Of a DNA stretch of 64,000 nucleotides, positions 889 to 57,154 are shown piece by piece. The position numbers and the translations under genes were made by a program. The first letter of the stretch is position 1. Each line of letters starts with the position of its first letter. Below the pieces are notes generated by a model, which saw only the letters and a program-made list of their open reading frames with translations, ran no database searches and was not told the origin of the DNA. Source of the stretch: Candidatus Parcubacteria bacterium (GTDB lineage: Bacteria > Patescibacteriota > Patescibacteriia > UBA1558 > GWA2-36-10); contig JABJNO010000025.1 of assembly GCA_018664825.1 (NCBI GenBank), forward strand, positions 3,022 through 67,021. The letters are read 5' to 3'.

Positions 889-974
889 AGAACAGTATTT
901 TGCGCTCTTGAAATATTTTTTAAATTAATGTATACTACTGCTGTTATTTTAATTAATTACTAAGAAAAAAGTAT

Positions 975-2294: not shown

Positions 2295-2313
2295 AATATT
2301 ATATAATTTAAAA

Positions 2314-2356
2314 CCATCCACCCGTTCGACTTTGCTCAGGGTGGGTGGTTTTTTTA
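2314..2356 (+). terminator. rho-independent terminator
   Basis: CCATCCACCC / GGGTGGGTGG stem with a T7 run at 2349-2356. Confidence 0.6.
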
Positions 2357-2403
2357 TTGGCTATTTTATGGTAAAATAAACATAATATTAAAGATAAAAA
2401 AAT

Positions 2404-3432: not shown

Positions 3433-3447
3433 AAAATAAAAAAAAAT

Positions 3448-5070
3448 ATGGACGAAGTACAAAATCAAACTCCTCAAACACCACCTCAGCCAGTAGCGCC
3501 TCAGGCTGTGGCTAGTCCTGATCCAAGTGTACAACCAGTCAAAAGTAAAAGTAACAAGTCAAAGATTATTTTAGGAATAATTTTGTTTGTTGTTTTGGTT
3601 GTAGTTGGTGTAGGTGGTTGGTGGTATTATGCTTTTGGTAAAGCATTTTTATTAACCAACAGCGCAGAATTTCCTTGGGGTGAAGAAGTAAAAAATTATA
3701 AAACAACCACAGATTTTAAATTTTCTGTCCAAGGGATTACAAAAAATGAAGAGTTTACAAATGAAGTAGGGGGCATGTTTGGTCCTCAGGATAGTTTTGG
3801 TATTAGTGGTACGATAGCCCAACAAAACATTAGCGACAATTTTTCTAGTGAAGCAACATATGTCGTTGATTATGGAGATGCCTTTTCTTTGAATCTGGCT
3901 GCCAATTTCAAATTGATTGATAGCATCATGTACATCAATCCAGATTTGACTGCTTTAGAAGCTTTGCCGTTGCCATTTGAGCTAGACCTGGACCTTAAGG
4001 GTACTTGGGTTGAAGTTCCTGGTGACATGTTTGTGCAAGACGATGAAGATTCTCCTGAGCAAGAAGCCTATTCAGAAAGATTTGATAATTTTATAGAGAA
4101 ATTAGAAGATATGGACGCCTTAGGATTCAAAGATCCTCATGAAACCAAAGATAGTTCTCAGGGTAAATTGATGAAAGTAAATTATACAATAGATGGCACC
4201 CAGTTAGATGGTATAGTGATGGCCTCTATTGAATCTGGTCTTACTTCGGCTTATGATATCGTGCCAAGTGAGCTTAGTGGTGATGAGCTTAATGCAATGA
4301 TTAGTGGAGACAAAGAAGAGTTTGAAAAATTTAAAAAAGAAAATGAAGAGCAGTGGGAATTGATGAAACACTATCTTTCTAATATCACATTATCTGCTTG
4401 GATAAATACCAAGACAAAAAATATTCAGGTTATGGAATTGGTGGGTGAAAATCTACCAATAGATTTGGAAGAAGACAAGGGTACAATGAGTTTTACAATA
4501 AGTTCTTTTTATGAACCAATTGAAGAAATGACCATCGAAAAACCAACCGACACCATGACTGCCGAAGAGTTGATGACTGGTATAATGACTCAGATTATGG
4601 GTGGCGGAATGATGCCTGAGCAAGCAGTCGTTGATACCGATGGTGATGGCCTGAGTGATGATATGGAATTTTATTATGGTACAGAAGTAGCAAATCCTGA
4701 TACCGATGGTGATGGCTATCTTGATGGCGAAGAAGTTTTGGGCGGCTACAATCCAAATGGAGAGGGTCTTTTAGAAGAAGAAGAGGATTTATTTGGAGGA
4801 GAAGTTTTTTATAATACCAATGAAGAGGCTTGTGTAGCCACTGGTGGAACATGGGGATCAACAGACGAGGCTACTAATATTGCCTGTGCTGCTGTTGTGG
4901 TAGAAGATTTCGAAGATCCATATGATGGCTATGACACCTGTGAAAAAAAGAGAGGGTGTAGGTGGGATTTATATGAAGGCAAATGCGCAAGTGTATCAAA
5001 TTATTGTTCTTGTTCTAGTGGTACTGAATACTATATTTCGGGGAATGATTTATTTGTAGGGTGTCAATAA
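3448..5070 (+). CDS. membrane-anchored secreted protein with C-terminal thrombospondin-type-3-like Ca-binding module and Cys-rich tail
   Basis: Pro/Gln-rich N-terminus, single TM (ILGIILFVVLVVVGVGGWWYYAF). DTDGDGLSDDMEFYYGTEVANPDTDGDGYLDGEEVLGGYNPNGEG module (nt ~4625-4780). Terminal 90 aa rich in Cys. Confidence 0.5.
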   Translation: MDEVQNQTPQTPPQPVAPQAVASPDPSVQPVKSKSNKSKIILGIILFVVLVVVGVGGWWYYAFGKAFLLTNSAEFPWGEEVKNYKTTTDFKFSVQGITKNEEFTNEVGGMFGPQDSFGISGTIAQQNISDNFSSEATYVVDYGDAFSLNLAANFKLIDSIMYINPDLTALEALPLPFELDLDLKGTWVEVPGDMFVQDDEDSPEQEAYSERFDNFIEKLEDMDALGFKDPHETKDSSQGKLMKVNYTIDGTQLDGIVMASIESGLTSAYDIVPSELSGDELNAMISGDKEEFEKFKKENEEQWELMKHYLSNITLSAWINTKTKNIQVMELVGENLPIDLEEDKGTMSFTISSFYEPIEEMTIEKPTDTMTAEELMTGIMTQIMGGGMMPEQAVVDTDGDGLSDDMEFYYGTEVANPDTDGDGYLDGEEVLGGYNPNGEGLLEEEEDLFGGEVFYNTNEEACVATGGTWGSTDEATNIACAAVVVEDFEDPYDGYDTCEKKRGCRWDLYEGKCASVSNYCSCSSGTEYYISGNDLFVGCQ

Positions 5071-5106
5071 TATTTATATATAAAAATAAAAATAATTTTT
5101 TAAAAA

Positions 5107-8100
5107 ATGGAAAATCAAAATTATCAACCGGTAAATTTACCAGAGTCCCAACCGGCTCAAGTGCCACCGAGTCATACTCCGCCACCGCAGGCACCGCAGG
5201 CACAAAAGCCTCACAGAGGAATGTCAAAGAAATCAACTGGTATGATAGCTGTATTAGCTTTTATACTTTTGGTAGTTGGGGGAGGTGCTTATGCTTTTTT
5301 CTTTACAGACTTGAAGTACAAAATACCTTGGCTCAGACCAGATGAGTCTCAACTAGTCAATTTGATGTATAATAGATTGTCCACTCTAGATGGGGCGGAT
5401 TTTTCTGTTGAGTACAATCTCTATGTAGCAGACAGAGATCAGGATATTATAGGTGATAGTGGCAACAGTAAGAGTGAAAGGGAGATGAGAAATTTGGCCT
5501 ATGACGTCCGATCATACTTGGCCAATCCAAAATCAGTCTTGACTAGATGTATAAATGATGGCGGAGAGCTTTTGCATGATGGTAAAAATACCTGTGATGG
5601 TGATGATAAACCCAAAAAAGACACTACAATGTGCAAGGGTGCTGATGGTAAAGTATATACTGCTATATGGGCAAGTCTAGAGGAAAAAGAATGGGAATAT
5701 CAAGATGATTGTGATTTTTCAAAAAATGAATTAGGCAATGTCACTTGGTCATATTCTGCAAAATCAACTTATAACGAAGATGCAGTTGAGTGTACGGAAG
5801 TTGGGTGTATTTTGGCAAGAGAAAACGATACATTAGATTTAAACACATCAGATGCCTTGATGTTTGCAGCTGGCAATTATTTCCAAGAAATTTTGGAAGA
5901 ATTAGAAGATCAAATTCCAAAAAACTTTGATGCCAAATTAGAATTTTCTGGTAAAGGATTTTCTATTTCCAATAGAGAAAAAGGAGAAAAATATCTACCC
6001 GATATAGAAGTTGGCCTAAAAGGTGAGGGGGATTTTTCTTCTCTGAGCGTAAAGTTGGATTTAGCAGCCAAGGTGGTAGATGATAAATTTTATTATAAAG
6101 TAGATAGTTTCCCAATGTTGGATATCACCGAAGGACATATGGGAGAATGGATAGAGATGGATACCGAACAAAATAGATCGTTTGCTGATATAGTGCCTGA
6201 GTATCAAGAAGAGCAAAAAGAAATTATTGATGATTTTCGTAATTTTATAGCTCAAACAAAAGATTATGATATTTTAGAGTTTGTTCCAAACGGTAAAACC
6301 ATCAAAATAGAAGGGGTGACCAGTAAATTATTTGATGTGACAGTAAAGGCGGAAAATATTCCTACTTGGTTAGAAGATGTTGTTAAAAAGGTTAGAGATA
6401 ATCAAGAGAAAATTGTAGATTCAGGCTTGATGGATATAAAGATAGAAAGCTCTGATGAAATGACCGAAGAAGATAAGGTCAAAATTGTAAATTATATTAA
6501 TAAGACATTAAAAAATTTAAATATTACAGCTGGTATTAGCACCAACACAGGGGACTTGATGTATTTGGAATTATTCTCCAGAATTTTACCAACAGCAGAT
6601 TCCAAAAAATTTGCCGATAAACAATTTAATTCTGTTTTAAAAATAAAAGCCTGGAATCAAAATAGTCCTTCAAAGATAGAGGCGCCCGGCGAATTTATCA
6701 GCTATGATGAGATTGATCAAGAAAAAAAGGGCTTGGATGATTTGGAGTATGCTGATTATAAACAATCAATGAGAATTACCAGTGTCCGACAAGATCTGGA
6801 TAAATACTATAAAGAGCACAAAAAATATCCAGATGAATTGAAAAAAGCTACCAAGCAGTATAGAGACTTGATTACAGATAAGGAGTATAAATATAGTGTA
6901 GATGGCAATAATTATGCCCTGATCTATACCATGAACAACACTACTATTCCTCCAGGGCAATTGAATAATAAACCAAGTAGTGCTGGCAGTGCTGGTGAAT
7001 GGGGATACAACGACTTGGATTCTGTTAATTTGGGTTATCCGGGTGGTTATGACAGAAGTGCTAGTTATAAAAGATTTTATTCCTATAATTATGTTTTAGA
7101 AAATTATTTATATTGGCATAGTGGTGAAAATCAAGCTGATCGTTATTCTCCTGTTGCTGATCAACATAAAACATCTGATAAGCTTGTCGTTGAGGGGGAT
7201 TATACAGATCACGATGTTTATGTAGCTGTTACTCAGTCCAAAAATATTAGAGCTATTTTGAGCACACTCAAAAACAAAAAGAGCTCAGATGGTAAATATC
7301 CAGATAATATAGATCCAGAAGAAGATCGTGAAATAGGTAAATATTATTATAATAACTTTAGTTATTGTGAAGATTTGATGACCAGTAATAAATGTGATTA
7401 TAAATCAATTAATAATGGCGAAGATTTTGAGCTCAAAGTAAATTTTGGAATGGATAGTTCAGGTATTGCCAAGAGCCTCTCTGGCTATAACTATGTTACT
7501 GTTTTTGATAAAGGTATAAATACTTTCAATGAATTTTCTACTGTTGATGCCAACAAGGACACAGATAGAGATGGCTTACTTGATATAGACGAGCTCAAAT
7601 ATGGCACAGACATAAACAACAAAGACACAGATGGTGATGGCTATTATGACGGTGAAGAAGTCCGTGGTGGTTACAATCCATTGGGATCTGGACTTTTGGG
7701 ACAAGAGGGTGAGCAAGTTGATCAAGGGGAGACAATCACTGGGTATTCTGTTCCTGATTTTAGCAAAGATTGGTATAGAGGAGATAAAGATGCTGGGCTT
7801 ACAGTTATTACTTTTTCTGATGTTGATTGTCCTTTTTGTGCTAGGTTTCATACTACTATGAATGAGGCGCTAGATTATTATGAGGGCCAGGTAAATTGGA
7901 TTCATCGACATTTTCCTTTGACAACCTTACATCCTGACGCCAAAAAAAAGGCTCATGCAGCTGAATGTGTAGGTGAGCTTGGAGATAGTGAAGATTTTTG
8001 GGCGTTCTTGGATTATGTTTTTGAAAATAGTGAAAGTTTGGCAGATCTTGATACTTATGTAACTACTATTGGTATAGATTCTGCCAAGTTTAAAGCTTGC

Positions 8101-8277
8101 CAAGATAGTGGAAAGTATAATTCAAAAATAGAAACACAGGCAACAGAGGCTCAGGCAGCCGGAGGTAGAGGGACTCCATTTAGTGTAGTAATAAAAAATA
8201 ACAAGGTAGTGGCTGAAATTCCAGGAGCCTTGCCTCTGGAGAGTATAAAGGCAACCTTGAATCAATTTGTAGAATAA
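5107..8277 (+). CDS. large membrane-anchored secreted protein with TSP3-like Ca-binding module and C-terminal DsbA-like thioredoxin domain
   Basis: N-terminal Pro-rich tail plus TM. DTDRDGLLDIDELKYGTDINNKDTDGDGYYDGEEVRGGYNPLGSG (nt ~7558-7680). C-terminal ~165 aa match the DsbA/Thioredoxin_4 pattern: VITFSDVDCPFCARFH (CxxC active site), HRHFPL, AAECVGE, GTPFSVVI. Confidence 0.6.
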   Translation: MENQNYQPVNLPESQPAQVPPSHTPPPQAPQAQKPHRGMSKKSTGMIAVLAFILLVVGGGAYAFFFTDLKYKIPWLRPDESQLVNLMYNRLSTLDGADFSVEYNLYVADRDQDIIGDSGNSKSEREMRNLAYDVRSYLANPKSVLTRCINDGGELLHDGKNTCDGDDKPKKDTTMCKGADGKVYTAIWASLEEKEWEYQDDCDFSKNELGNVTWSYSAKSTYNEDAVECTEVGCILARENDTLDLNTSDALMFAAGNYFQEILEELEDQIPKNFDAKLEFSGKGFSISNREKGEKYLPDIEVGLKGEGDFSSLSVKLDLAAKVVDDKFYYKVDSFPMLDITEGHMGEWIEMDTEQNRSFADIVPEYQEEQKEIIDDFRNFIAQTKDYDILEFVPNGKTIKIEGVTSKLFDVTVKAENIPTWLEDVVKKVRDNQEKIVDSGLMDIKIESSDEMTEEDKVKIVNYINKTLKNLNITAGISTNTGDLMYLELFSRILPTADSKKFADKQFNSVLKIKAWNQNSPSKIEAPGEFISYDEIDQEKKGLDDLEYADYKQSMRITSVRQDLDKYYKEHKKYPDELKKATKQYRDLITDKEYKYSVDGNNYALIYTMNNTTIPPGQLNNKPSSAGSAGEWGYNDLDSVNLGYPGGYDRSASYKRFYSYNYVLENYLYWHSGENQADRYSPVADQHKTSDKLVVEGDYTDHDVYVAVTQSKNIRAILSTLKNKKSSDGKYPDNIDPEEDREIGKYYYNNFSYCEDLMTSNKCDYKSINNGEDFELKVNFGMDSSGIAKSLSGYNYVTVFDKGINTFNEFSTVDANKDTDRDGLLDIDELKYGTDINNKDTDGDGYYDGEEVRGGYNPLGSGLLGQEGEQVDQGETITGYSVPDFSKDWYRGDKDAGLTVITFSDVDCPFCARFHTTMNEALDYYEGQVNWIHRHFPLTTLHPDAKKKAHAAECVGELGDSEDFWAFLDYVFENSESLADLDTYVTTIGIDSAKFKACQDSGKYNSKIETQATEAQAAGGRGTPFSVVIKNNKVVAEIPGALPLESIKATLNQFVE

Positions 8278-8293
8278 TACAAGATAACAAAAA

Positions 8294-8326
8294 ACACCCC
8301 AAGCAAAATCGAGGGGTGTTTTTTTA
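8294..8326. terminator. bidirectional rho-independent terminator between convergent genes
   Basis: ACACCCC / GGGGTGT hairpin flanked by an A-run (8286-8293) and a T-run (8320-8326). Confidence 0.6.
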
Positions 8327-9646
8327 TTTTATATAGTTTAGTGGATTTTTTCTTACTTCGTTGACCCTTACTTCAAAGTGAAGGTGAGGCCCAGTTGACC
8401 AACCAGTATTTCCTATCAAGGCGATGGTTTGTCCACGAGAAACACTATCACCAGCGTTGACTAGTAACTGGCTAGAGTGAGCATAGAGAGTTTTGATGCC
8501 ATTGCCGTGGTTGATTACTACATTGTATCCGTAGCCTCGAGACCAGCCAGATCTTTCTACTTTGCCGGCTTCGGCTGCATATATAGGTTTACCAGTTTTG
8601 TCTCCAACATCTAGCCCACTATGTCCCCAGTGATAATATTGAGTAATACGTTTGCTGATAAGTGGCCATAAAAATTTTGTGCCAGTATTTATGTTGGCGG
8701 CAGGTGGAACATCTTTGTCACTATATACAGGGGCAGGAGGCTTATAAGAAGAAACAACTCGAGTTGGTTTTACACCATTTGGTATAAAGAGTAGATCACC
8801 AACAGCAATGTCTCCAGCATCGGCTAGTTTATTTATTTCTACTACCTCAGAAGCTTCTGTTTGATATTTTTTGGCAATAGCCAAGACGGTATCTCCTGAT
8901 TTTATTTCGTGGCTAATACCAGATGTAGGTAGTATGCTCAGTTTTTGTCCAGGACGAATAGTACTATTCCAACTAAGTTCATTTTCCCAAAGTATAGTAC
9001 TGACAGAAATATTATATTTTTCGGCAATTTTACCTATCACATCACCAGGTTGTACGACATAATCAATAGGACCTGTCCTGCCGGCGGGTGTATTACCGGA
9101 GCCTATACCCGTATCTTCTGGATTGAGTAAGACCAGGCTACCAGAGTCAGTAGAAAAATCAGCATTATCTATATAATCATCTTCAAAATTTGGATTGTTG
9201 ATCACGAGCTCTTGGACATTACCCTGCTCTTCGAGGTAGTTTACAATTTTTGGTTGGTTTATCGCTGGACCTTCTTCTTCGATTAGCTCACTCCATTGCT
9301 CTTCGTCGGCAGTCACCAGAGAAGAGAGTAGAGTACGACTGGCATATTCATCAGTATTGTATCCTTGGGCAAAAATTGTATTGGTAGTGACAGCTATCAA
9401 TACAATGGCTACTCCAATACGAGGTAAATATCTTTTTATAAAATAAAGATAGTTTATATTTTTAATATTTGAGTTTTTTATTTTTATTTTGCTAAGAAGT
9501 AAAGTCTTGTAACCAAACAAAATAAAAGGGAAAATAGTAAATTTTCCTATGTTCAACAAAATCCAGCCCAAAAACCTGCCTCCACGGCCTGATTTTGTTC
9601 TTAGCCACATGACTCCATCGGCTGTTTTTATAGCCAATTTAGTCAA
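8324..9646 (-). CDS. LysM-domain M23 (LytM-type) peptidoglycan endopeptidase
   Basis: Two LysM motifs (YVVQPGDVIGKIAEKYNISVSTI and HEIKSGDTVLAIAKKYQ). C-terminal M23 signature HSGLDVG...YNVVINHGNGIKTLYAHSS...GNTGWSTGPHLHFEV. The annotated N-terminus is translated from AT-rich low-complexity DNA, so the true start is probably downstream near the signal peptide RIGVAIVLIAVTT (~9430). Confidence 0.85.
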   Translation of the reverse strand: MTKLAIKTADGVMWLRTKSGRGGRFLGWILLNIGKFTIFPFILFGYKTLLLSKIKIKNSNIKNINYLYFIKRYLPRIGVAIVLIAVTTNTIFAQGYNTDEYASRTLLSSLVTADEEQWSELIEEEGPAINQPKIVNYLEEQGNVQELVINNPNFEDDYIDNADFSTDSGSLVLLNPEDTGIGSGNTPAGRTGPIDYVVQPGDVIGKIAEKYNISVSTILWENELSWNSTIRPGQKLSILPTSGISHEIKSGDTVLAIAKKYQTEASEVVEINKLADAGDIAVGDLLFIPNGVKPTRVVSSYKPPAPVYSDKDVPPAANINTGTKFLWPLISKRITQYYHWGHSGLDVGDKTGKPIYAAEAGKVERSGWSRGYGYNVVINHGNGIKTLYAHSSQLLVNAGDSVSRGQTIALIGNTGWSTGPHLHFEVRVNEVRKNPLNYIK

Positions 9647-9820
9647 TAATTTCTTGATAATTAAACTTATATACTTATCTTAATTTTTATCTATTTTTGT
9701 AATATAAATAATAACATATCATCATCAAAAATAACAGTCAAGGGACAAAATGAGCCCGATTTTTGTATTTGATTTTTTAGCTAACAAATGATAAAATTCT
9801 ACTATAATTTCATTATTTTT

Positions 9821-16614: not shown

Positions 16615-17403
16615 ATGGCAAAGAAAAATTTTAAAATTCAGGACTATCATAACTCTGAAGATGATCCAAAAGAATCAGCTGATTTTTTGCAACGAGCAAA
16701 TTTGGTAAAACAAAGTGATAGTCACAACCACAAGGTTATTTGGCCTTTTTTAATTTTAAGTATTTTTTTGGTTGCCTTTGGTTTTAGATTTATGTATGGC
16801 AATATCACTGATTCAGTTTCTTATGATGTGCCAGAGTGGGTAGAAGAAGAATTTGCACAAGAAACCGATGCGGAATTAATTGCTAAAATGCAAAAAGATG
16901 ACACAGACGAAGATGGTCTGAGTGATTATCAGGAGCTATATCAATATCATACCAGTATGTTTTTGGCGGATACAGATAGTGATGGCTATACAGATTATGA
17001 AGAGGTCACTTCTGGCAATGACCCGGCATGTCCAAGTGGACAAAGTTGTAATTTGCTCAAATTGATTACTCCTAAGTCAAAAATTAGTGAAGTGATTGAG
17101 GGTGTGGTTGATAATGATGATTTATCTATTGAAGATGCTGCCTTGGCAGAGTTCAAGAAATTTTTGTTGGACAATGGCATGACCCAAGAAGAGCTAGATA
17201 CCTTAACTGATCAAGAACTATTGGTAATCTTGGTAGAAGTGGGTAATCCAGAGGGTGTACCGATGGATATTTTGAGCAGTGAAACAACTCCTGAACAAGT
17301 CAGGAATTTTTTACTTAGTCAGCCAGATGCTGATGAAGAAGAGATAAATAGTCTCACAGACGAAGAATTAGCAGAGATCAAGGAAATTTTATTAACTCCA
17401 TAA
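16615..17403 (+). CDS. small membrane-anchored acidic protein with TSP3-like Ca-binding module (first gene of giant-protein operon)
   Basis: TM at aa ~43-60. DTDEDGLSDYQELYQYHTSMFLADTDSDGYTDYEEVTSGNDPACPSG. 27-nt gap to the next gene. Confidence 0.5.
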   Translation: MAKKNFKIQDYHNSEDDPKESADFLQRANLVKQSDSHNHKVIWPFLILSIFLVAFGFRFMYGNITDSVSYDVPEWVEEEFAQETDAELIAKMQKDDTDEDGLSDYQELYQYHTSMFLADTDSDGYTDYEEVTSGNDPACPSGQSCNLLKLITPKSKISEVIEGVVDNDDLSIEDAALAEFKKFLLDNGMTQEELDTLTDQELLVILVEVGNPEGVPMDILSSETTPEQVRNFLLSQPDADEEEINSLTDEELAEIKEILLTP

Positions 17404-17430: not shown

Positions 17431-20400
17431 ATGAAAAGCTACAAAAAAATTCTCTTATTAATTATAGCTATTTTACTAGCTGTTACCCTCATTTTCCCAA
17501 GATTGACCAGAAGTCAATTTGCTACCGTCGATCAACCTTCAACGTTGGGAAACATTTGGAACAAAGTAGAAACGGCTTATGACAAAATTCAGGGTATAGT
17601 TGGGGCTGAACTAGCAAACCGTACTTTTGAAATGTTTTTCAATAGTCTAGCTTATGATGTGGCCACCGAGCTAGCCGAAGGTGGAGCGGGCGGCAAACCT
17701 CAGTTTCGGACAAAGACCATAGGTGAGTATATGGGTAACGCTGGCGGAGCAGCTGTCGGTGAGTTTATTGGTACTCTAAGTGAACAAGCTTTTGAAGATT
17801 TGCGTGTAAATCTCTGTAGTCCAAATGCACTTTCAGTAAAACTTACCTTGTCACTTTCATTGATAGACGAAGAAGCTCCTCCGAAACCGGCTTGTGATTG
17901 GCGTAGGATTCAAAGAGATTGGGGTGATTTTGCTGATAACTTATCTGCTGATTTGATAAAATTCCAGCTTGACCCAAAGAGGGGGGCTACTAGTACTAGG
18001 GCATTTTTCCAGAGTTTTACTATGGAGCAAAGTGATTATGGTGCTTATGCTATATTATTTCAAAAAAAAGAAGAGAAAAAAGAAGAAGCTATAGACGCCA
18101 GTAAGCTTAGTGCCGAAGAGTGTCAGGGGTATCTTGATAAAGCAACTCCAATTACAGATGAGGTAATTACACATTGTTCAGTCACCCAGAGCATGAGTAC
18201 TATGCAATGGTTTATGTCTTGGTCTGCTCAATCTCAAAAACAATGGGAGAAAAAAAATGCAGCTACTAGCAAGAAGTTGGGTACCATCCTAAAAGATGCT
18301 GCTGGTAAATTTTATAGTACTTTTACTTCAAAATTGATGAACAACTGGATCAAAAAAGGAATGTGGTCCTTGTATGATTTATTTGATGGCAATGGTGGTG
18401 GAAAATACAGAAAGGGTTTGATAGAAGCTTTGCGTGGTGATTCTAATATTCGTCAGCCTCGTAATGCTGATATTTTCAAGGAGTTCAAAAAAATAGAGAT
18501 AGTAAAATTGGACGATTATAGTTTTATGGATGATTTCTCTATTTGTCCACCAGAAAAAGATCTAAGAAAACCAGACAACTGCGTGATTGGTACAGATTTT
18601 GTCCAAGCTATTAATTCCAAAAAAACACTGAACGAAGCAATTGCAGAGGGTCTAATAGATCCAAAAACACCCTTGATTAGTCCAGAGGATTTGAATAAAA
18701 ACACTAGCGATAATTGTTATAAAGATAGTTTGTGCTATAAAGATTTGATTAAACTAAGGAAAACCAATGTCATACCAATTGGTTGGGAGATAGCAGCTCA
18801 AAGAAGTTCAGTAGCTTCTCCGGTAAGTTTGGCAGAGGCTATAGAGTGTTTTGAGGATGCTCCAAACTCAAATTGTATTCATGACACAACAGCGGTTTAT
18901 GATATAAATGGAGTTCCGCATAATCCTTTTTATCATTTAGTGGATGGTGATTGGGTGCTCAAAGCTCCAAAATCAAGTTGTGAGGCTTTGGTTTATGCAC
19001 CAGTCTTGGAATCATCACAAAGTACCAACCGTCAACAGTATTGTGCTGATATGACGGTCTGTCTACGTGAAGATGAAAATGGAAATTGTCTTGATGGACA
19101 ATATGGATATTGTACTAAATCAGAGAATATTTGGCGTTTCCGTGGGGATATGTGTGATGATGGTGATATATACAATGGTTGCCTAACTTTTGAAAGTAAT
19201 TATGTAGATGATCCGGGCTCATTTATAGAGAGTAGTTTGGAATATTGTAGTGCTGATCAAGCTGGGTGTAAGCGTTATTCCCAGGAAGTAACAAATAGCG
19301 GAGAATGGTCACTGGGAGTCATATATGTAGATCCAAATGATTTATATTTAAATAGAAGAGAGGAGTCTTGCAACGAAGAGTTTGCAGGTTGTTCTGAATA
19401 TATAGTTTTGGCTCCAAATAGAGGGGTCAATCTTGTGGCAAATGCTGGTTTTAATAATATGGATGGTGATTCGGATGTACCCTTTCCAGATGGTAGGCCA
19501 GATGGTTGGATTGATTTGGCTACTGGCGAAGATAGTGATGGTGTAGAGTATGATGGTGATAGAATAGCCAATGGATATCCGTGGGGAGGCTCGCCTCATG
19601 CGGGTACAGAAAGTCTTTATCAAACAATACCTCTTGTAGAAAATACTACTTATAGGATTTCAGCTTCTGCTGGTAGATATAATAACGCGGTAGCTTCATC
19701 AGGAAGGATATCGATATTATTGTGTGATGTTACGGGTAACTGTGCCAATAATAGTTTGGCAAAGCCTTTGGCAGATGGCGGAGATTGTACTATACCAAAT
19801 CCAGGAGACAACAACCCTAATCTAACTATTTTCCCACCTGCTAGCGGGGAAATGGAGAGGGCAAGTTGTTCTTTTACTACCAATAGTGCAGAAATCGGAG
19901 AAGCACAGTTGTATGTTGTGTCAAACGGTTCAAATGCTAGTTGGTTTGATAATATTAAAGTAGAAGTTGTTGGTGGTCCTGAGATGGCAGCTAGCTCTTA
20001 TACAGAATACGGTGTTGGTGGGGTAGTATATATGAGCGGTAGCACTTTTATGTGTGAACGAGAAGAAGTGGGTTGTCAAGGCTATACTCCTGTTAACGGA
20101 GGCCCTATGGTACCTGGTACTATTTCTGAAGGAGATTTATGTCCTAATGAATGCGTGGGTTATTCTACTTTTGCTCAGCAACCAAATATATATGATATTA
20201 TGGAAGATCCAGCTTCAAATCCACCAGTAGAGTATTATAATTTTATTCCAGATACTGCCAATAGTTGTCCAGATTCAGAAATTGGCTGTGAAGAATTTAC
20301 AAATCTTGATGAAGTAGCTCAGGGCGGTGAAGGAAGAGAGTATTATAGTTTCTTGCGTCAATGTGTAGAGCAGGACTTGGCTGCTACATTTTTTACCTGG

Positions 20401-23400
20401 GAAGGCAACGATACAACTGGTTACCAGATTATTACTAGAGATTTATTGGGTAGTGAAGTAGTTACTTTTCTTCCAGATGGAGTAGCTCCATGTACAAATA
20501 TTGCCCCAGGAGGCAATGTTTGCCAGGACACTATCGGTGTTCCTGCGATTTGTGGTGACGAAACTCCAGCTGATCCAACCGATGATCCAGATGTTGATCC
20601 AAATTGTCGTGAATATTTTGATACTACTGGACGTTCATATTTCCGTTTTCAAGACAGAGTTATTTATGCAGACAATGATTGTCATGACTATAAGAGGACT
20701 TCTACTGGGCAAATATACAAAGCTATCCCTAGTAGGAGCATTGCTTGTTCAGCCGAAAACGATGGCTGTCGCTCATACTATGGTAACGCAGCTAATAATT
20801 TGAGAGAAATTTTCTCAGATAATTTTGAGGTGGATATGTACTATTGGGAGGATGCCGCAGGACCAGCGCTTGCGTTGTCTCAGGAGTCACTGAATGACGG
20901 AGGGCAATCTTTGAGAACTCAAACAGGTGGAGTGATATTCAAAGATTTACTTGCTGCTGGTGCTCAGGTATACAATGAAAAAGAATATGAACTTTCTTTC
21001 TGGATGAGGGCAAACGCACCTTTGTCTGATATGCAGGCTAGCCTTCTTGCGAATGATGGAGCCAATCCTTTGGTTATTGTTCCTATGGTAGATCCAGCGG
21101 ATGCCAACTTTAGAAATATTGGAGGAGGCACTTGGAATTATTATACTACCTCTGTATATGTAGATACCCTTAATATTGATTTAAACAATCTTGTAGATTT
21201 ACAGTTGAGACTTTCCTTTAATGGGGGGATAGTGGATGATATTTTCTTGGACAATGTTACGATGAGAGAAGTGTATACTCATCTAGCGGTTGTAAAAGAT
21301 TCTTGGGACACTCCAGTGTCTTGTGATACCCCATACGAAGGTTATCATCTAGGTTGTCAATCTTATATAGATACAAATGGAGCACCTTATAACTTAAAAT
21401 CGTTTTCACACCTATGTAGAGAAGAGGCGATAGGTTGTGCTCCGGCGATTGATACTCAAAACTCAACTTATCCTTTTAGTGAGGAATTCAACACGGGTGA
21501 TTTATCACGTATTACCGTACCAGCAGACAGCTTGACTTTCTTGGTGCCAAATTCTGAAAATTATTGTCCGGAAAATTATAAGGGTTGTAGTGCCCTGGGC
21601 TTGCCTGATGATTCTCTCAATCCATCTTCTTTTGAGACTGTCTACAAAATGAATGACCCAGACGCATACGGAGCTACTTTGTGTGAATTTGAGGGTCTGG
21701 ACTGCGAAGAGTTTAATTCAGCCAAAGGTACGTATTATTTCAAGATTATTTCAGAGCAAGGCAGCTGTAGTTATTTACAAAATGTTTTGATAAATGACGG
21801 CTCAAATGATCAATTGATAAATGGTTGGTTCAATAATTTTTCTATTGCAAATGATACAAATATTGGTTGTTCTGATGATGGAGATGGCACAATAGAACAA
21901 TCAGATTATGACTTTATCTGGGACCATTGTACTGGTCATCCAGATGTCCACACAGAACAAGAATGTACGGTTGGTGGATGGTTTTGGGAAAATAGCCAAA
22001 CAGCCGCTTCTTGTCCACCAGACAGAGATATGTGTACAGCTTTTAGAGATCCACAAGATCCAGTTGGTTGTGATCCAAACATCCAAGATAGAAATATAGA
22101 AGGGTACTGTAGTGATTTTGCGCATACTGATGAAAGTGCTTGTCGTTCAAATGGTGAGACCTGGACTCCTGCTTGTGATGAATATTATTATTATAAAAAC
22201 GATAAAATAGACGAGACTTCTTGCAACGGTCAAGTCGATAGAAATAGTGGCTGTATATTATTGGCAGATGCCAATAATTGGAATGGCGAGCATTCAGAAG
22301 TAGCTTTGTATTATGATAGTAATCAAAGTTATGATCTAAATGTATCTAGAAATCAGCCATACAGTCCGACTACTTGTAATCCTGATATTGATCCAACGTG
22401 TACTTTGGATGCAAATCTTTTGGTCAGAGCCTCAAAGGACAGGCAATGCGCCGAATGGCTAACTTGTAAATCGTCTACCGCAGTGTTCAATAAACAAACA
22501 AATGATTATGATTTGATTTGTGATGGCCTTGATTCTTGTGTTGAATTTGACGATGACGACACTAGCCTTACTAGTTGTAAAAAATGGGCAGATTATAATG
22601 AGACCAATACAGAGGCTTTGACGGCAGAGGTATACCAAACTCGAACTACTGGTAGGTACAACCATCTGGATTGGAGTGATTTTGAATATACTGGATATGC
22701 TGTACCGGATATGCTACCACCTAGTGAATTGGTTACTTACAATTTTGGTGACGAGGATAATCCAGAACCACGTTTGACTTATAGTGTTTGGGATAGCGTG
22801 GCTATCAATACAAGATTTTATGATGCTTGTGTGATCGCCTCTGATCCTGCTCAGCCACTAAATGACGCTGTTTGTACAGCTGAAATATCTGGGGAGAATT
22901 TTTATGGAGATTGTGAAGATGGTATTTGCTGGGTAAACCCAATGGCTCAAAACACTGATATAGATCAATTTCAAGTAGAAACTAGAGGTTACGCCACACC
23001 AAGCGCTCCTTTTCCAGCAGCTATTTCTCCTGGATTGGACAAATTACAGGCTTACAGTAACGCCAATGAGTGTGACGCAGATGAAAATGGTTGTGAGGCA
23101 GCTTATGTCAAAGTGACCTATGGTGACGCTTTGGGTAGCGCTACTGTTTTCCATTATCCGAAAGGATATTCGCCTATTCCTGGTAGTATTTGTACAATGG
23201 GGCGCACTAATGCTGGAATTATATGTACTGAGAATAGTCAGTGTGATTCTGCCTCTGGTAGATTTGATGGTCAATGTGCTCAAAAGACAAAAGAAGAAAC
23301 ATTTTTCAATTGGCAGGGAGTTTGTATGGAAAAAGATAAATCAGAAACTCTAGTCAAGGATAACGAAGACAGTAATAGCTGTAATATATGGTATCCAACT

Positions 23401-26253
23401 GATAGTATAGATGGTATAAGTAGCTTATTCAACAACTTTCGTGAAGCTGGTTATCATGCTGAAGACGGTAATGATGCTTTATTCTGTGCTGTAGCTGAGC
23501 CGTTTGAATTTACTGAAGATACTTATTTTTGTGGTCATACACAAAGTACTGGAGGTCTTACTGTGTGTACGGTTTTGATAAAAGTACCAGCTGGAGCTAT
23601 GGTGAGTTTGTCAGGTATTCAAAATTATGGTGATGAGATAGTAAATGGTTACTTAAGAAACTATGCCGACCATGCCTTTGACGAGCCGATAGATTATAGT
23701 AGTGAATATTCAGGCGCAAGCTTTCCAAATGGCTTTGGTGTAGATTGGGTTGAGAAAAATGGTGTTGGTCCAGATGTATACTATAATCCAAATCAAACAA
23801 CTTCGTGTACGCACTATAATAATTATGATAGTTTGCCAGTGAGCTTTGGTGATGGATATGACTCATTTTTCCGAGATATGGATTTTACTGATGATGATAT
23901 ACCACCGATGAATGATATTCCAGTGATTCCATTTGGCAATGTAGCTGAAGTATTCAATACCGGAGTAACTAGTAATGCCTCTGGTCCAATAGATATATAT
24001 TATTATGATGAAGAAGTTTCTGATAATGGTAATTTTTCTTATACTGCCGGTATTTTGGTACCTGGTGCTGAGCGTTATCATTACGGAATAAGTACTATAT
24101 ATGATGGTAATGTAGTGGCCGATGTTGGCAAGAGCTGTGAAGACAAATGTAGAAATGATTGGGGTGTTTTCTATTGTCCTGACGGCTGGCACGAATCTCT
24201 ACTAAGGAGAAAATACACAGGTTCAAAATGTAAAACATGGGGACCTCGTGAACATTGGAGTTTCCGTTATTGTAATCCAGGCGACCATAACTATTATGTA
24301 AAGGCAGAATATCCACCAACTATGGCACCACCAGCTCAGTGTTCTGAATATGATTGTGGCGCAGCCAATAAAGGACTTAGTTGTTTACATACACCTGGTA
24401 GTACATATAATGACATGTTAACCGCAGTTATTGGCTCTTCCTATAGTTGGATGCTTCCGGTTGATATTGATCCGAATCCAATGGTCACTACTTATAGAGA
24501 TAGATTACCTATACCTAATATGGCATTGGCTGGATTACCTCAATATTGTTATAATAATCCAAACTGTCTATATATATATTGTGTAGAAAGAGCTAGTGTA
24601 TCAAATGATTATTGTAGTGAATTTGGTGAAATAAGAGAAAATACAAATGCAGATGGTGTGGTCACTAGTATTAGTATTATCGAATGTCTGGACAATCTTT
24701 ATGAAACAGACCCTGAAAATGGCGTTCAAGCATTCAAGGTAAAAGATGACACTGATAACGTAGATCCAAACCTTGGCTGGCCACTGGCTATTGACTTAGG
24801 TCTTTTGGATCAAGCCTATAATACAGATTTTGCTTGTTATAATGTATCAAATTCAACCAATCCAATATACGATGGTAGTATTAATAACGAGCTGACATGT
24901 AACAACACATTAAATAGATCTTGGCTAAACAGGGGCTCAGTACAGCCTGCCTTTATGGGTTGCCTGGAGTCTGATGTGGGCGTAGACTGCTCTACTAATT
25001 TTGCAATGGCCCCTGCCAATAGATGCTATTGGTGGAGAAGAGGAAATTGGATAGCTCCATACTATTGTAGTTCTGTCTATGCTACCACGAGAGATGGTGC
25101 AGATTGTACGGGTCTGGAATGTTTCCAACAATGTAGGATAGTGACTGAGCTTGATTCAGAGGGTGATAGGTCTTATGTGCGTACTGATATTTGGTGGAGA
25201 AACGAAGAAAGTACTACTCGTTTAGTGACAGACAACTGGACTTCCTATTATTATCACAACAATACTATTGGTTATGGAGTAGCCAATGGTAATGTAGATT
25301 GGGACAACATCAATGATAATGCAATTCCAGATGAGTTTGGTGATCCGGGTTCATTTGATACTTTTGGTGCTGCTAAGAATAGTATAGGAGATCAAAAATT
25401 ATTTGCTCGAGCACCACTTGATAGTACAAATAATTTTTCAGAGTACTTGACTGCTCACTTCTTTAGTTTTGTATCTGGTACTCCAGAGCCAGTTGTTGAT
25501 GCTTATGCTTTGGCCGAAGATCAGATGGAGTATCTATTTTTCAGAACCTTTAATTTTGAATGGAGATGGGACTTACTCACTAGTCAATATACATATATTG
25601 AGCCAGATACTGCGTACTCTGTAAATTTACGTACTGTAGAGATGCCAAACGGAAACAACAACAATCCATTTGCCGGGGCAGAGTTTGACCCGGTTGTGTA
25701 CAAGAGTTGTGAAAACAAGCTATGTCCAATCACAGATTTGGCAGGAGAGATCCAAAGCTATGAGCACGGTATCACGGTCAATAACTCAAATGTCGGTAGA
25801 ATAAATGGACACGAGTCATTGTTTGTGTCTACCAAGTTTTTCTATTATGCTCACCCGGATCATATGCCTATCGTAGATGTGGGAGTGGTTTGGGGTGATC
25901 AGGATGTCAATCTTGTTTCATCAAATCCTGGTAAATATAAAAATAGTTTGGAAACCTGTGATCCTAATTGGATGGCAAGTCCACCAACAGGCTTTGTCCT
26001 TGGATTTGGTGGTACCGTGGGTGCTTGTCAGGTAGGCTATAAAGTATTTTACAATGATTATGCATATGATGCAGATCCACATGATCCTACAGTAGGACAT
26101 CCTTGTAATGGCGCTACTTATGATATAGCTGCTGGGCCAACTCCAGCTATCAGTGATGCTTCTTGTTTCCGCCCAGGTATTAGAGTAGAGGATAGATGGG
26201 GTCGTGAAACTACAGCTTATTATGATGATTGGATAGTTATCCATAGAAATTAA
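17431..26253 (+). CDS. giant (2940 aa) cysteine-rich extracellular/surface protein
   Basis: Uninterrupted 8.8-kb ORF. N-terminal signal/TM (ILLLIIAILLAVTLIFP). Very high Cys, Asn, Asp and Gly content typical of giant surface proteins of CPR-type genomes. Confidence 0.8.
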   Translation: MKSYKKILLLIIAILLAVTLIFPRLTRSQFATVDQPSTLGNIWNKVETAYDKIQGIVGAELANRTFEMFFNSLAYDVATELAEGGAGGKPQFRTKTIGEYMGNAGGAAVGEFIGTLSEQAFEDLRVNLCSPNALSVKLTLSLSLIDEEAPPKPACDWRRIQRDWGDFADNLSADLIKFQLDPKRGATSTRAFFQSFTMEQSDYGAYAILFQKKEEKKEEAIDASKLSAEECQGYLDKATPITDEVITHCSVTQSMSTMQWFMSWSAQSQKQWEKKNAATSKKLGTILKDAAGKFYSTFTSKLMNNWIKKGMWSLYDLFDGNGGGKYRKGLIEALRGDSNIRQPRNADIFKEFKKIEIVKLDDYSFMDDFSICPPEKDLRKPDNCVIGTDFVQAINSKKTLNEAIAEGLIDPKTPLISPEDLNKNTSDNCYKDSLCYKDLIKLRKTNVIPIGWEIAAQRSSVASPVSLAEAIECFEDAPNSNCIHDTTAVYDINGVPHNPFYHLVDGDWVLKAPKSSCEALVYAPVLESSQSTNRQQYCADMTVCLREDENGNCLDGQYGYCTKSENIWRFRGDMCDDGDIYNGCLTFESNYVDDPGSFIESSLEYCSADQAGCKRYSQEVTNSGEWSLGVIYVDPNDLYLNRREESCNEEFAGCSEYIVLAPNRGVNLVANAGFNNMDGDSDVPFPDGRPDGWIDLATGEDSDGVEYDGDRIANGYPWGGSPHAGTESLYQTIPLVENTTYRISASAGRYNNAVASSGRISILLCDVTGNCANNSLAKPLADGGDCTIPNPGDNNPNLTIFPPASGEMERASCSFTTNSAEIGEAQLYVVSNGSNASWFDNIKVEVVGGPEMAASSYTEYGVGGVVYMSGSTFMCEREEVGCQGYTPVNGGPMVPGTISEGDLCPNECVGYSTFAQQPNIYDIMEDPASNPPVEYYNFIPDTANSCPDSEIGCEEFTNLDEVAQGGEGREYYSFLRQCVEQDLAATFFTWEGNDTTGYQIITRDLLGSEVVTFLPDGVAPCTNIAPGGNVCQDTIGVPAICGDETPADPTDDPDVDPNCREYFDTTGRSYFRFQDRVIYADNDCHDYKRTSTGQIYKAIPSRSIACSAENDGCRSYYGNAANNLREIFSDNFEVDMYYWEDAAGPALALSQESLNDGGQSLRTQTGGVIFKDLLAAGAQVYNEKEYELSFWMRANAPLSDMQASLLANDGANPLVIVPMVDPADANFRNIGGGTWNYYTTSVYVDTLNIDLNNLVDLQLRLSFNGGIVDDIFLDNVTMREVYTHLAVVKDSWDTPVSCDTPYEGYHLGCQSYIDTNGAPYNLKSFSHLCREEAIGCAPAIDTQNSTYPFSEEFNTGDLSRITVPADSLTFLVPNSENYCPENYKGCSALGLPDDSLNPSSFETVYKMNDPDAYGATLCEFEGLDCEEFNSAKGTYYFKIISEQGSCSYLQNVLINDGSNDQLINGWFNNFSIANDTNIGCSDDGDGTIEQSDYDFIWDHCTGHPDVHTEQECTVGGWFWENSQTAASCPPDRDMCTAFRDPQDPVGCDPNIQDRNIEGYCSDFAHTDESACRSNGETWTPACDEYYYYKNDKIDETSCNGQVDRNSGCILLADANNWNGEHSEVALYYDSNQSYDLNVSRNQPYSPTTCNPDIDPTCTLDANLLVRASKDRQCAEWLTCKSSTAVFNKQTNDYDLICDGLDSCVEFDDDDTSLTSCKKWADYNETNTEALTAEVYQTRTTGRYNHLDWSDFEYTGYAVPDMLPPSELVTYNFGDEDNPEPRLTYSVWDSVAINTRFYDACVIASDPAQPLNDAVCTAEISGENFYGDCEDGICWVNPMAQNTDIDQFQVETRGYATPSAPFPAAISPGLDKLQAYSNANECDADENGCEAAYVKVTYGDALGSATVFHYPKGYSPIPGSICTMGRTNAGIICTENSQCDSASGRFDGQCAQKTKEETFFNWQGVCMEKDKSETLVKDNEDSNSCNIWYPTDSIDGISSLFNNFREAGYHAEDGNDALFCAVAEPFEFTEDTYFCGHTQSTGGLTVCTVLIKVPAGAMVSLSGIQNYGDEIVNGYLRNYADHAFDEPIDYSSEYSGASFPNGFGVDWVEKNGVGPDVYYNPNQTTSCTHYNNYDSLPVSFGDGYDSFFRDMDFTDDDIPPMNDIPVIPFGNVAEVFNTGVTSNASGPIDIYYYDEEVSDNGNFSYTAGILVPGAERYHYGISTIYDGNVVADVGKSCEDKCRNDWGVFYCPDGWHESLLRRKYTGSKCKTWGPREHWSFRYCNPGDHNYYVKAEYPPTMAPPAQCSEYDCGAANKGLSCLHTPGSTYNDMLTAVIGSSYSWMLPVDIDPNPMVTTYRDRLPIPNMALAGLPQYCYNNPNCLYIYCVERASVSNDYCSEFGEIRENTNADGVVTSISIIECLDNLYETDPENGVQAFKVKDDTDNVDPNLGWPLAIDLGLLDQAYNTDFACYNVSNSTNPIYDGSINNELTCNNTLNRSWLNRGSVQPAFMGCLESDVGVDCSTNFAMAPANRCYWWRRGNWIAPYYCSSVYATTRDGADCTGLECFQQCRIVTELDSEGDRSYVRTDIWWRNEESTTRLVTDNWTSYYYHNNTIGYGVANGNVDWDNINDNAIPDEFGDPGSFDTFGAAKNSIGDQKLFARAPLDSTNNFSEYLTAHFFSFVSGTPEPVVDAYALAEDQMEYLFFRTFNFEWRWDLLTSQYTYIEPDTAYSVNLRTVEMPNGNNNNPFAGAEFDPVVYKSCENKLCPITDLAGEIQSYEHGITVNNSNVGRINGHESLFVSTKFFYYAHPDHMPIVDVGVVWGDQDVNLVSSNPGKYKNSLETCDPNWMASPPTGFVLGFGGTVGACQVGYKVFYNDYAYDADPHDPTVGHPCNGATYDIAAGPTPAISDASCFRPGIRVEDRWGRETTAYYDDWIVIHRN

Positions 26254-41384: not shown

Positions 41385-42440
41385 ATGAAAAAAACAATTT
41401 TTGGACTATTATTTATTTCTTTTTTTGCATTGTTTTTTGTCTTCACTGTTAGTGAGGTCAATGCAGAGATTGTTTTCGAACCAAATGTCAGAATACCAGG
41501 TACCTCATTTGGAGGATCGGTAATAATTTCTGCCGAAGATAACTCCATAGGCCTTTACATAAAGGCTCTGTACGAATATGGAGCGGTATTTGTAGGAGCG
41601 GTAGCTATGTTTATGCTTGTCTTTGCTGGCTGGCAGTGGCTGATGGCTGCTGGCTCATCAGACAAAATTGGACGAGCCAAAGAAACAATAAATGGTACCT
41701 TGATAGGGTTGATATTGTTGTTTGGTGGTTATTTATTGTTATCACAAATCAGTACAAATTTGGTTGAGTTCAAGGATATCAATATTGTACCATTGGATTT
41801 GGAGACTACTAGTGATGAGACTTGCGATACCATGAATCAAAGGATTAAGAATGGCACAGCTCCTGATTATATACCTACAACACTTATAGATCCTGCCTCA
41901 AAGTATGCTTGCGGTAAGCCTTATCCTGTATGGAAAACAAATGAAGATGGTACGACTGATTTTAATAATAAAGAGGCAGATTGTACGTATAACCTTTCTA
42001 GCATAGACTCATCAAGATGTAGAGCCAAAAAGAACGGAGAGGAATTATGGAGTAAAGATTGTGTTTCTGTGCCTGATCCAGCCTATCCTTGTAAACAGTT
42101 GTCTGGTAATTGTACTTGGATTTTTTCTGGTAACAATAGGCCAGGTAACAAATGTGAAAATTATTTGAATAAGGATTGGTGTATTTCTAACTATTGTCGT
42201 ACTGAGCATCCAGAATATGAATGTGGCCTTGATCAAAACAATCCTAGAGCAAAATGTGAGCTCTTGGACAATGTCTGGTGTAATAGTAGTGAATATTGTG
42301 ATTTTGACGGTTCAAATAAATGGTGTTGCGAGGATAGCGGTGGTACTGATTACTGTCGTATAGACAAAACAGTTGATAGTGATAGAGGTAATCCGGATAA
42401 CAACAATGATAATATAACAGATAATTGTAGAACTATATAA
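41385..42440 (+). CDS. VirB2/TrbC-like pilin domain fused to a C-terminal cysteine-rich domain
   Basis: Signal peptide, then two hydrophobic helices separated by a short basic loop (AVFVGAVAMFMLVFAGWQWLMAAG - SSDKIGRAKETINGT - LIGLILLFGGYLLLSQI), as in VirB2 pilins. Followed by ~210 aa with >20 Cys. Confidence 0.4.
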   Translation: MKKTIFGLLFISFFALFFVFTVSEVNAEIVFEPNVRIPGTSFGGSVIISAEDNSIGLYIKALYEYGAVFVGAVAMFMLVFAGWQWLMAAGSSDKIGRAKETINGTLIGLILLFGGYLLLSQISTNLVEFKDINIVPLDLETTSDETCDTMNQRIKNGTAPDYIPTTLIDPASKYACGKPYPVWKTNEDGTTDFNNKEADCTYNLSSIDSSRCRAKKNGEELWSKDCVSVPDPAYPCKQLSGNCTWIFSGNNRPGNKCENYLNKDWCISNYCRTEHPEYECGLDQNNPRAKCELLDNVWCNSSEYCDFDGSNKWCCEDSGGTDYCRIDKTVDSDRGNPDNNNDNITDNCRTI

Positions 42441-57005: not shown

Positions 57006-57154
57006 AATAATAAATTTAATTGTTAAAGCAATTAATATAATTTTACTAAATCTTAGAGCTTTTGGCAATCTTTGAAATATTTTTATTTCAGACTGAAATG
57101 TGGTATAATATATCAAGAAATCGGAACAAAAAAATAAAAGTTAAAAATAAAAGT

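Follow-up and report, generated by a model that had tools for sequence, protein, structure and literature searches.

The window analyzed here is a 64-kb stretch of DNA with a GC content of about 0.36; homologs of its genes carry the names Patescibacteria, Parcubacteria, Komeilibacteria or Falkowbacteria, and it has the look of ordinary chromosomal DNA from a bacterium of the candidate phyla radiation (CPR). Three of its open reading frames (ORFs), which we call ORF1, ORF2, and ORF3, encode proteins with a module resembling the thrombospondin type 3 (TSP3) repeat. ORF2, which begins 36 nt downstream of ORF1, is our main subject: its predicted product is a membrane-anchored scaffold protein that ends in a domain of the DsbA family of thiol-disulfide oxidoreductases. 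The coordinates of all features are collected in Table 1.

The C-terminus of ORF2 appears to be a surface-tethered thiol-disulfide oxidoreductase domain of the DsbA type, with a thioredoxin fold and a helical insert, just as a previous reading of this DNA, made from the sequence only, had supposed from a CPFC motif lying shortly after the TSP3 module. Residues 888–1051 match the Pfam families Thioredoxin_4 (PF13462, E 2e-20) and DSBA (PF01323, E 4.8e-11). The CPFC motif (residues 908–911, nt 7828–7839) falls at the start of a predicted helix (909–925), and a Gly-Thr-Pro loop (G1022-T1023-P1024, nt 8170–8178), whose proline is predicted to be in the cis conformation, is found in all domain-bearing orthologs and in stand-alone relatives. 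A second Cys pair, C954/C998, lies between them. The AlphaFold model of full-length ORF2 has a mean pLDDT of 54 and is usable for the DsbA domain only; it is confident solely over this region, where 10-residue blocks average 64–89 and the secondary structure of residues 890–1055 runs beta-alpha-beta, five helices, beta-beta-alpha, the order seen in DsbA. The best PDB matches found by Foldseek are DsbA structures with target TM-scores of 0.73–0.80, namely Wolbachia alpha-DsbA1, Pseudomonas aeruginosa DsbA2, Corynebacterium diphtheriae DsbA/TsdA, and Bacillus subtilis BdbD. The PDB sequence matches agree (P. aeruginosa DsbA2, 4n30; C. diphtheriae DsbA/TsdA; BdbD).

A word-indexed search of 5.8 billion proteins returned only nine relatives of ORF2. 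The DsbA domain is present in six of these orthologs, and all six keep the CPxC motif (CPFC in three and CPYC in three), the GTP loop, and the C954/C998 pair. Conservation of the active site, on which the sequence-only reading had made its proposal depend, thus holds in every ortholog that has the domain; the other three orthologs, P0002, P0008, and P0009, lack the domain as a whole.

Just upstream of the DsbA domain lies the TSP3 module. A six-frame scan of the window for D.D.D[GN]..D..E yielded exactly six matches, two each in ORF1, ORF2, and ORF3 and none elsewhere, compared with a chance expectation of 0.01–0.03 (about 0.02) in shuffled DNA or shuffled proteins. The Pfam family TSP3_bac (PF18884, cut-off 25 bits) matches ORF1 (E 5e-7, 29.9 bits) and ORF3 (E 1.2e-6, 28.6 bits) and also ORF2, there at 24.2 bits (E 3.1e-5), 0.8 below the cut-off. 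The module previously noticed in the three proteins is therefore real, with two amendments: in ORF2 it spans residues 818–864 rather than 815–850, and it belongs to the bacterial family, the eukaryotic TSP_3 family (PF02412) being absent from the Pfam matches at E ≤ 0.1. Both motifs in ORF2 are complete, and their residues are invariant across all nine orthologs; few stretches of the protein are as well conserved as the module, which forms the C-terminus in the orthologs without a DsbA domain. The module presumably binds calcium. The modules of ORF1 and ORF2 are 66% identical over 53 residues (E 8e-16), including the GYNPxGxGLL cap, and those of ORF3 and ORF2 are 55% identical over 42 residues.

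All three proteins carry one hydrophobic segment, near the N-terminus, and Lys and Arg are more numerous ahead of it than behind it (four against three in ORF2), consistent with the N-in, single-pass orientation already assigned to them. We infer that the C-terminal domain of ORF2 is extracytoplasmic; its eight paired Cys and its TSP3 module fit a location outside the cell. The Pro/Gln-rich N-termini earlier ascribed to all three proteins are a feature of ORF1 and ORF2 (38–39% Pro plus Gln); in ORF3, the figure is 10%.

A point missed by the sequence-only reading is that the likeness between ORF1 and ORF2 extends beyond the module. When an alignment of 14 ORF1-family sequences is compared with one of nine ORF2-family sequences, hhalign pairs a core of about 230 residues with a probability of 99.8% (E 1.8e-29). 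The two proteins are accordingly distant paralogs having the core, the anchor, and the TSP3 module in common, members of a family of scaffolds with a predicted type II anchor in Patescibacteria. The plan common to both families is a P/Q-rich cytoplasmic tail, a Gly/aromatic-rich transmembrane (TM) segment, a beta-rich core, two TSP3 repeats with a GYNPxGxGxL cap, and a variable C-terminus. The AF2 model of ORF1 has a mean pLDDT of 72.5, with most of residues 70–385 at block means of 80–95; searched with Foldseek, it finds no PDB neighbor for the shared core fold at E < 1e-3. The resemblances that it does show, to half-barrel proteins (Staphylococcus aureus SAOUHSC_02783, ependymin-related proteins, Csa1A), are weak, with target TM-scores of about 0.3–0.4, so function cannot be deduced from the fold.

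Beyond this common plan, ORF2 has a region with six invariant Cys and two alpha/beta units, and its ectodomain, leaving aside the DsbA domain, contains eight invariant Cys in all. The alpha/beta units form an internal repeat of about 75–95 residues (hhalign probability 94.5%, E 7.6e-8), and their profile matches residues 571–645 of a distant family member, P0383 (91.9%, E 6.9e-7). Residues 566–638 of P0383 in turn match the Pfam family T2SSG (PF08334) at 25.5 bits, above the cut-off of 21. Neither Pfam searches of ORF2 and 18 repeat units nor a PDB profile search gave a significant match to T2SSG or a pilin; given that the support is transitive through P0383, we call the units pseudopilin-like and no more. 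We also considered whether ORF2 itself is a pilin. Its N-terminus consists of a 44-residue P/Q-rich tail followed by IAVLAFILLVVGGGAYAFFF, in which a class III signal peptide (a prepilin peptidase site of the G/FTLIE type) was not found, and we rejected the idea for want of this cleavage motif; pilin-like head units may still be present.

What follows the TSP3 hinge is variable: members of the family end in nothing, in a DsbA domain, or in an 8-Cys tail. P0002, P0008, and P0009 stop right after the TSP3 cap, and they are complete genes, with the next gene 55–78 nt away. P0002, encoded at locus L001, is the closest relative of ORF2, with about 65% identity. An exhaustive profile search added distant members with a DsbA domain (P0250, P0256, P0337, P0338, P0362, P0383, and P0341, the last of which, at 313 residues, looks like a piece of a longer protein) and without one (P0252, P0253, P0255, P0257, and P0269). 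An 8-Cys tail follows the TSP3 repeats in several of the DsbA-less members and in P0254. In P0253, P0254, P0255, and P0257, this tail is conserved, ends in RWKCFC(Q/R/K), and occupies the slot used by DsbA elsewhere; homology between it and the tail of ORF1 was considered and rejected, as the alignment is unconvincing. The active site departs from CPxC in two proteins: P0254 (1134 residues) has SPYC in a domain that is followed by TSP3 repeats and the 8-Cys tail, and the fused domain of P0341 has GPFC. Both may be monothiol or inactive derivatives.

That the domain is dispensable in three of the nine orthologs might be taken to mean that the fusion reflects accidental read-through between two neighboring genes, without selected function. 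We find this scarcely credible, given that at least nine clusters at 50% identity have this architecture, that the catalytic motifs are intact except in P0254 and P0341, and that the N-terminal anchor of the stand-alone enzyme is cleanly missing from the fused forms.

Patescibacteria also have stand-alone DsbAs of about 250 residues, each with a TM anchor of its own and a linker rich in Asn; these are 55–59% identical to the DsbA domain of ORF2. At locus L005, in a related genome, the gene for such a protein adjoins genes for another DsbA and for VKOR. In a tree of the scaffold, two DsbA-less proteins each have a DsbA-bearing sister, P0002 pairing with ORF2 and P0008 with P0005, at 100% bootstrap support in both cases. 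On this tree, the most parsimonious history is one ancestral fusion with losses alone thereafter; we rejected it since the tree of the DsbA domain contradicts it. There, P0005–7 group with stand-alone P0062/81/87 (100%), P0003/4 with P0011/20/23 (83%), P0250 with P0044 (82%), and P0256 with P0069 (93%), and a clade made up only of the fused domains of the six orthologs appears in 0 of 300 replicates. Each fused domain is closer to some stand-alone DsbA (56–74% identity) than to the fused domains of other clades (43–53%), and lineage signatures such as CPYC plus WVKGDSKA are common to fused and stand-alone forms. These data show that the fused DsbA domains, as sampled here, are not monophyletic. 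Each fused clade groups with stand-alone DsbAs, which argues for repeated capture from the resident dsbA or for homogenization by gene conversion; the P0005–P0009 clade further requires at least two losses (P0008 and P0009).

The organism clearly relies on extracellular disulfides, and among the exported proteins of the window several are rich in Cys. The number of Cys is even in each of the eight complete exported proteins that have any (2, 2, 2, 8, 12, 14, 18, and 110), which fits active disulfide formation outside the cell; cytoplasmic proteins mostly have 0–2 Cys, except those with CxxC pairs. We propose that the roughly 770 extracellular residues of ORF2 would form a scaffold, comprising the six-Cys region, the beta-rich core, and the two pseudopilin-like units, and that the two-repeat TSP3 module would act as a hinge, followed by a linker of about 20 residues and a complete DsbA/MdbA-type domain. 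The source of this domain would be the membrane-anchored, stand-alone DsbA of the lineage itself, whose chemistry it most likely retains: it would oxidize paired Cys in other exported proteins, acting in trans, and be re-oxidized by a VKOR encoded elsewhere. The fusion would thus put on display, at a greater distance from the membrane, an accessory copy of the general oxidase. The domain at the TSP3 slot would have been gained or homogenized, and lost, repeatedly. On balance, we think it rather probable that ORF2 is a scaffold displaying an accessory copy of the general DsbA oxidase, one that acts in trans and is not dedicated to the adjacent genes.

The sequence-only reading went further, taking ORF1, ORF2, ORF3, and a giant ORF downstream of ORF3 as a dedicated extracellular disulfide-folding system, in which the shared TSP3 module would bring the oxidase to Cys-rich clients. 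Its description of a surface-tethered oxidoreductase encoded beside Cys-rich exported proteins is borne out, and the arrangement does suggest such a system: ORF1, with its 8-Cys tail, sits immediately upstream of ORF2 and carries a very similar module, ORF3 lies directly upstream of the giant ORF with its 110 Cys, and the occupation of one slot by a DsbA domain in some members and an 8-Cys tail in others hints at a pairing of enzyme and substrate. A role dedicated to these neighbors is nevertheless unlikely. At L001, the gene order is as in the window (Na/Ca exchanger, ORF1 ortholog, ORF2 ortholog, convergent LysM-M23 gene), and the ORF1 ortholog retains its 8-Cys tail although the ORF2 ortholog has no DsbA domain. 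The adjacency of ORF1 and ORF2 is confined to the window and L001; the upstream context of the other orthologs is ParA/ParB, or Nramp plus Lipoprotein_15 plus a small uncharacterized gene. ORF3 and the giant ORF are set apart from ORF2 by housekeeping genes; the giant ORF lies 9 kb from ORF2, behind genes for leucyl-tRNA synthetase (LeuRS), two major facilitator superfamily (MFS) transporters, Sua5, and KsgA. The module itself is promiscuous: a search with ORF1 gave 1592 matches, including fusions of TSP3_bac to sortase, OmpA, M23, and many other domains, so that sharing it implies no specific functional link, and we know of no interaction between one TSP3 module and another. The closeness of the domain to the general stand-alone CPR DsbA likewise argues against a dedicated enzyme. 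On the account that we favor, of a general oxidase on display, the giant ORF is a plausible candidate substrate with no specific link to ORF2.

It is also conceivable that the DsbA domain acts in cis, folding the Cys-containing ectodomain of its own chain. The eight invariant ectodomain Cys would place enzyme and substrate on one polypeptide, but P0002, P0008, and P0009 retain all eight without any DsbA domain; conversely, the domain occurs in P0362, whose ectodomain has no Cys, and P0256, P0337, P0338, and P0383 have only two each. These distributions make action in cis a distinctly improbable alternative to action in trans.

Several observations weigh against our preferred account of ORF2. 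First, we found no gene for VKOR, DsbB, or a second DsbA in the 64-kb window (ORFs of at least 100 residues, or at least 80 within nt 1–20000, checked by Pfam or by Cys and TM content), so the dsbB/vkor partner that the sequence-only reading had raised is unproven for this genome. Second, a DsbA domain at the end of an ectodomain of about 770 residues may be out of reach of a membrane-embedded VKOR; this possibility puts the re-oxidation route in doubt and keeps an isomerase-like, reductase-like, or host-directed role alive. The model of the scaffold is too poor to give its geometry. Third, the Thr-cis-Pro loop and the CPFC/CPYC motifs cannot tell oxidases from isomerases or reductases, and there is a weak NCBIfam match to DsbG (E 0.0011). 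Finally, the trees are neighbor-joining trees on about 170 columns, and the window's own DsbA domain is weakly placed (31% bootstrap), so that the history given above is firmest for the other clades; and fused and stand-alone copies were found together in none of the species-representative genomes in a first scan, a second scan giving three loci, all cut by contig ends.

Some of these points lend themselves to another explanation, in which the displayed domain would be an isomerase, a reductase, or a redox-active adhesion module that works far from the membrane and independently of VKOR; it could, for example, reshuffle disulfides in giant surface proteins or act on host-cell surface proteins of a presumably episymbiotic bacterium. 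VKOR recycling would indeed be awkward at such a distance. The Thr-cis-Pro loop and CPYC also occur in DsbG and ScsC-type proteins, ScsC structures are among the PDB sequence and fold matches in addition to the weak DsbG match, and the scaffold has pseudopilin-like units. In contrast, the dimerization domain of DsbC, DsbG, and ScsC-type proteins is absent, and the domain is nearly the same as the VKOR-adjacent stand-alone enzyme and keeps exchanging with, or being recaptured from, the stand-alone form, which argues for unchanged chemistry. We therefore regard a non-oxidase role as doubtful and retain the oxidase on display as the better description of ORF2.

The most constant feature of the genomic surroundings of ORF2 is not a redox gene. 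The LysM-LysM-Peptidase_M23 gene convergent with ORF2 is the single conserved neighbor of the family, in five lineages; its orthologs lie at L001 6257–7585, L002 7312–8649, L003 13334–14674 (L003/L004), and L006 3170–3658, again convergent with the scaffold gene. The M23 protein is 79% identical between the window and L001 and is thus better conserved than ORF2. This hints that the scaffold is linked to the cell wall (or cell division) rather than to redox chemistry, though convergent genes are weak evidence. The GC-rich hairpin between the two genes is probably a bidirectional terminator. Upstream, the P0005–P0009 clade has a gene of 125–156 codons without a Pfam match directly before the ORF2 ortholog (L002 4055–4444; L003 9570–9962; L006 1–378; L007 3396–3866), the position that ORF1 takes in the window and at L001. 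At L003, a methionine sulfoxide reductase B (SelR) gene (8079–8471) lies about 1.5 kb upstream of the fused P0005, beside an Nramp gene; this redox-related synteny may be coincidental.

Further along the window, ORF3 has only the TSP3 module in common with ORF1 and ORF2. It ends 28 nt before the start of the giant ORF, and given this short gap, the two may form an operon. The sole match of the giant ORF is a weak one to CBM_4_9. The window also encodes cation antiporters, S6, the single-stranded DNA-binding protein SSB, EF-P, RecG, threonyl-tRNA synthetase, ClpB-like and HtpX-like proteins, and three tRNAs. The LeuRS gene (9788–12682, + strand) has a NUDIX hydrolase domain (PF00293, E 1.2e-13, residues 399–520) inserted right after the editing domain (residues 233–390), an unusual insertion for an aminoacyl-tRNA synthetase. 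A type-IV-secretion-like cluster (33481–42440, + strand) includes genes for a PrgI family protein (35024–35485), a VirB4/TraG-like ATPase (36178–38109), and the pilin-like protein listed in Table 1, and is followed by an IS200-like Y1 transposase gene (42620–43189). The YadA-head repeats of one exported protein are surprising in a bacterium without an outer membrane.

Table 1. Features of the window discussed in the text (nt positions in the window; aa, amino acids).
Feature	Position (nt)	Strand	Description
ORF1	3448..5070	+	540 aa; P/Q-rich tail, TM segment (aa ~38-63), beta-rich core ectodomain, two TSP3 repeats, 8-Cys C-terminal tail (predicted)
ORF1 core domain, aa 142-381	3871..4590	+	Homologous to ORF2 aa 309-542
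ORF1 TSP3 module, aa 396-441	4633..4770	+	Two DxDxDGxxDxxE repeats and GYNPxGxGLL cap
ORF1 Cys-rich tail	4828..5067	+	All 8 Cys of ORF1; variable payload behind TSP3 hinge
ORF2	5107..8277	+	1056 aa; predicted type-II anchored scaffold protein with C-terminal DsbA domain
ORF2 TM anchor, aa ~45-66	5239..5304	+	Follows P/Q-rich tail and KPHRGMSKK stretch; conserved in orthologs
ORF2 six-Cys region	5548..5808	+	Invariant C148, C163, C176, C202, C229, C234
ORF2 core domain, aa 309-542	6031..6732	+	Common to ORF1 family (hhalign)
ORF2 alpha/beta repeat unit 1, aa 543-618	6733..6960	+	Pseudopilin (T2SSG)-like
ORF2 repeat unit 2, aa 699-795	7201..7491	+	Invariant Cys pair C754/C763
ORF2 TSP3 module, aa 818-864	7558..7698	+	Pfam, motif scan, ortholog alignment
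ORF2 DsbA/Thioredoxin_4 domain, aa 885-1056	7759..8274	+	Pfam, PDB sequence matches, AlphaFold/Foldseek
GC-rich hairpin between A-run and T-run	8290..8326		Between convergent ORF2 and M23 genes
LysM-LysM-Peptidase_M23 gene	8324..9646	-	No Cys; convergent neighbor of ORF2
ORF3	16615..17403	+	262 aa; TM anchor, two TSP3 repeats (nt 16900-17004), C-x6-C pair, acidic helical repeats
Giant exported ORF	17431..26253	+	2940 aa, 110 Cys
Type-IV-secretion-system (T4SS)-pilin-like ORF	41385..42440	+	18 Cys
YadA-head-repeat ORF	57062..59260	+	Membrane-anchored, 12 YadA-head repeats (E 9e-63), 14 Cys
Exported ORF running off window end	about 61191-64000	+	>936 aa, 30 Cys

The closest known counterpart of the ORF2 domain is the stand-alone CPR DsbA (fam000318; Meheust et al, 2019, PMC6744442), a family described as MdbA-like and often VKOR-adjacent. 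It shares with the ORF2 domain the CPFC/CPYC motif, the GTP loop, the second Cys pair, the same N-terminal beta-strand (DW.RGD), and, as predicted for ORF2, an extracytoplasmic, membrane-tethered location. Unlike ORF2, it is a small protein whose own TM anchor is joined by a short Asn-rich linker; in ORF2, the anchor is replaced by a scaffold of about 860 residues and the TSP3 hinge, and no VKOR gene is nearby. MdbA of Actinomyces oris and C. diphtheriae and BdbD of B. subtilis are likewise DsbA folds, on the outer face of the membrane in cells with no periplasm, re-oxidized by VKOR and BdbC, respectively. The predicted fold of the ORF2 domain matches MdbA (5c00) with a target TM-score of 0.59 and BdbD (3eu3) with 0.77, and C. 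diphtheriae DsbA (4pwo) is also matched; these proteins, however, are only 16–25% identical to the ORF2 domain, small, single-domain, and near the membrane. The best sequence and fold matches, P. aeruginosa DsbA2 (4n30) and Wolbachia alpha-DsbA1 (3f4r), are soluble periplasmic proteins of diderm bacteria without a scaffold fusion, although the alignment shows 4n30 to have, like ORF2, CPFC and two additional paired Cys in the helical domain.

Bacterial TSP3 proteins (PF18884), among them OmpA-like proteins and Myxococcus xanthus CglD and MtsD, have the same DxDxDGxxDxxE repeat, but in long arrays on outer-membrane or gliding-motility proteins, whereas ORF2 has two repeats only, which would serve as a hinge between the scaffold and a C-terminal payload. 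Other DsbA fusions from the exhaustive search are also larger membrane-anchored proteins, with different partner domains and in different phyla: P0359, for example, reads as three DsbA domains with CPFC behind a TM segment and an N-terminal region resembling a kinase, and we saw no TSP3 motif or scaffold core in its sequence. Many proteins of 600–1200 residues (such as P0359, P0260, P0264, and P0300) match the profile in three to five stretches, best in the DsbA region; they may hold several DsbA domains, and multi-domain DsbA fusions may be commoner than usually noted. In the literature that we searched, we found no description of a TSP3-hinged fusion of DsbA to a scaffold. The parts, DsbA and TSP3, are known; what is new is their arrangement, in which a TSP3 hinge joins DsbA to a CPR scaffold family not described before, together with the unusually dynamic history of the fusion slot.

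The shared TSP3 module and the proximity to Cys-rich genes are no evidence of a dedicated system, and our analysis corrects that over-reading. More tentatively, the scaffolds may serve as display platforms with a hot spot of domain exchange at the TSP3 slot, where different lineages would have placed their own housekeeping DsbA time and again, or kept it homogenized by gene conversion, to build a distal oxidative-folding station. We consider this speculative and would not expect it to hold; if true, the station would be active in the zone of the wall or surface layer where giant Cys-rich adhesins and pili fold, or on host-cell surface proteins, and it would need re-oxidation without direct contact with VKOR.

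Large Cys-rich surface proteins and pili serve host attachment in CPR/Patescibacteria, which makes extracellular disulfide machinery central to their lifestyle. The architecture of ORF2 raises the question of how an oxidase far from its membrane partner gets recycled, and the repeated capture, homogenization, and loss of a domain at one slot provides a clear small case of modular evolution in surface proteins.

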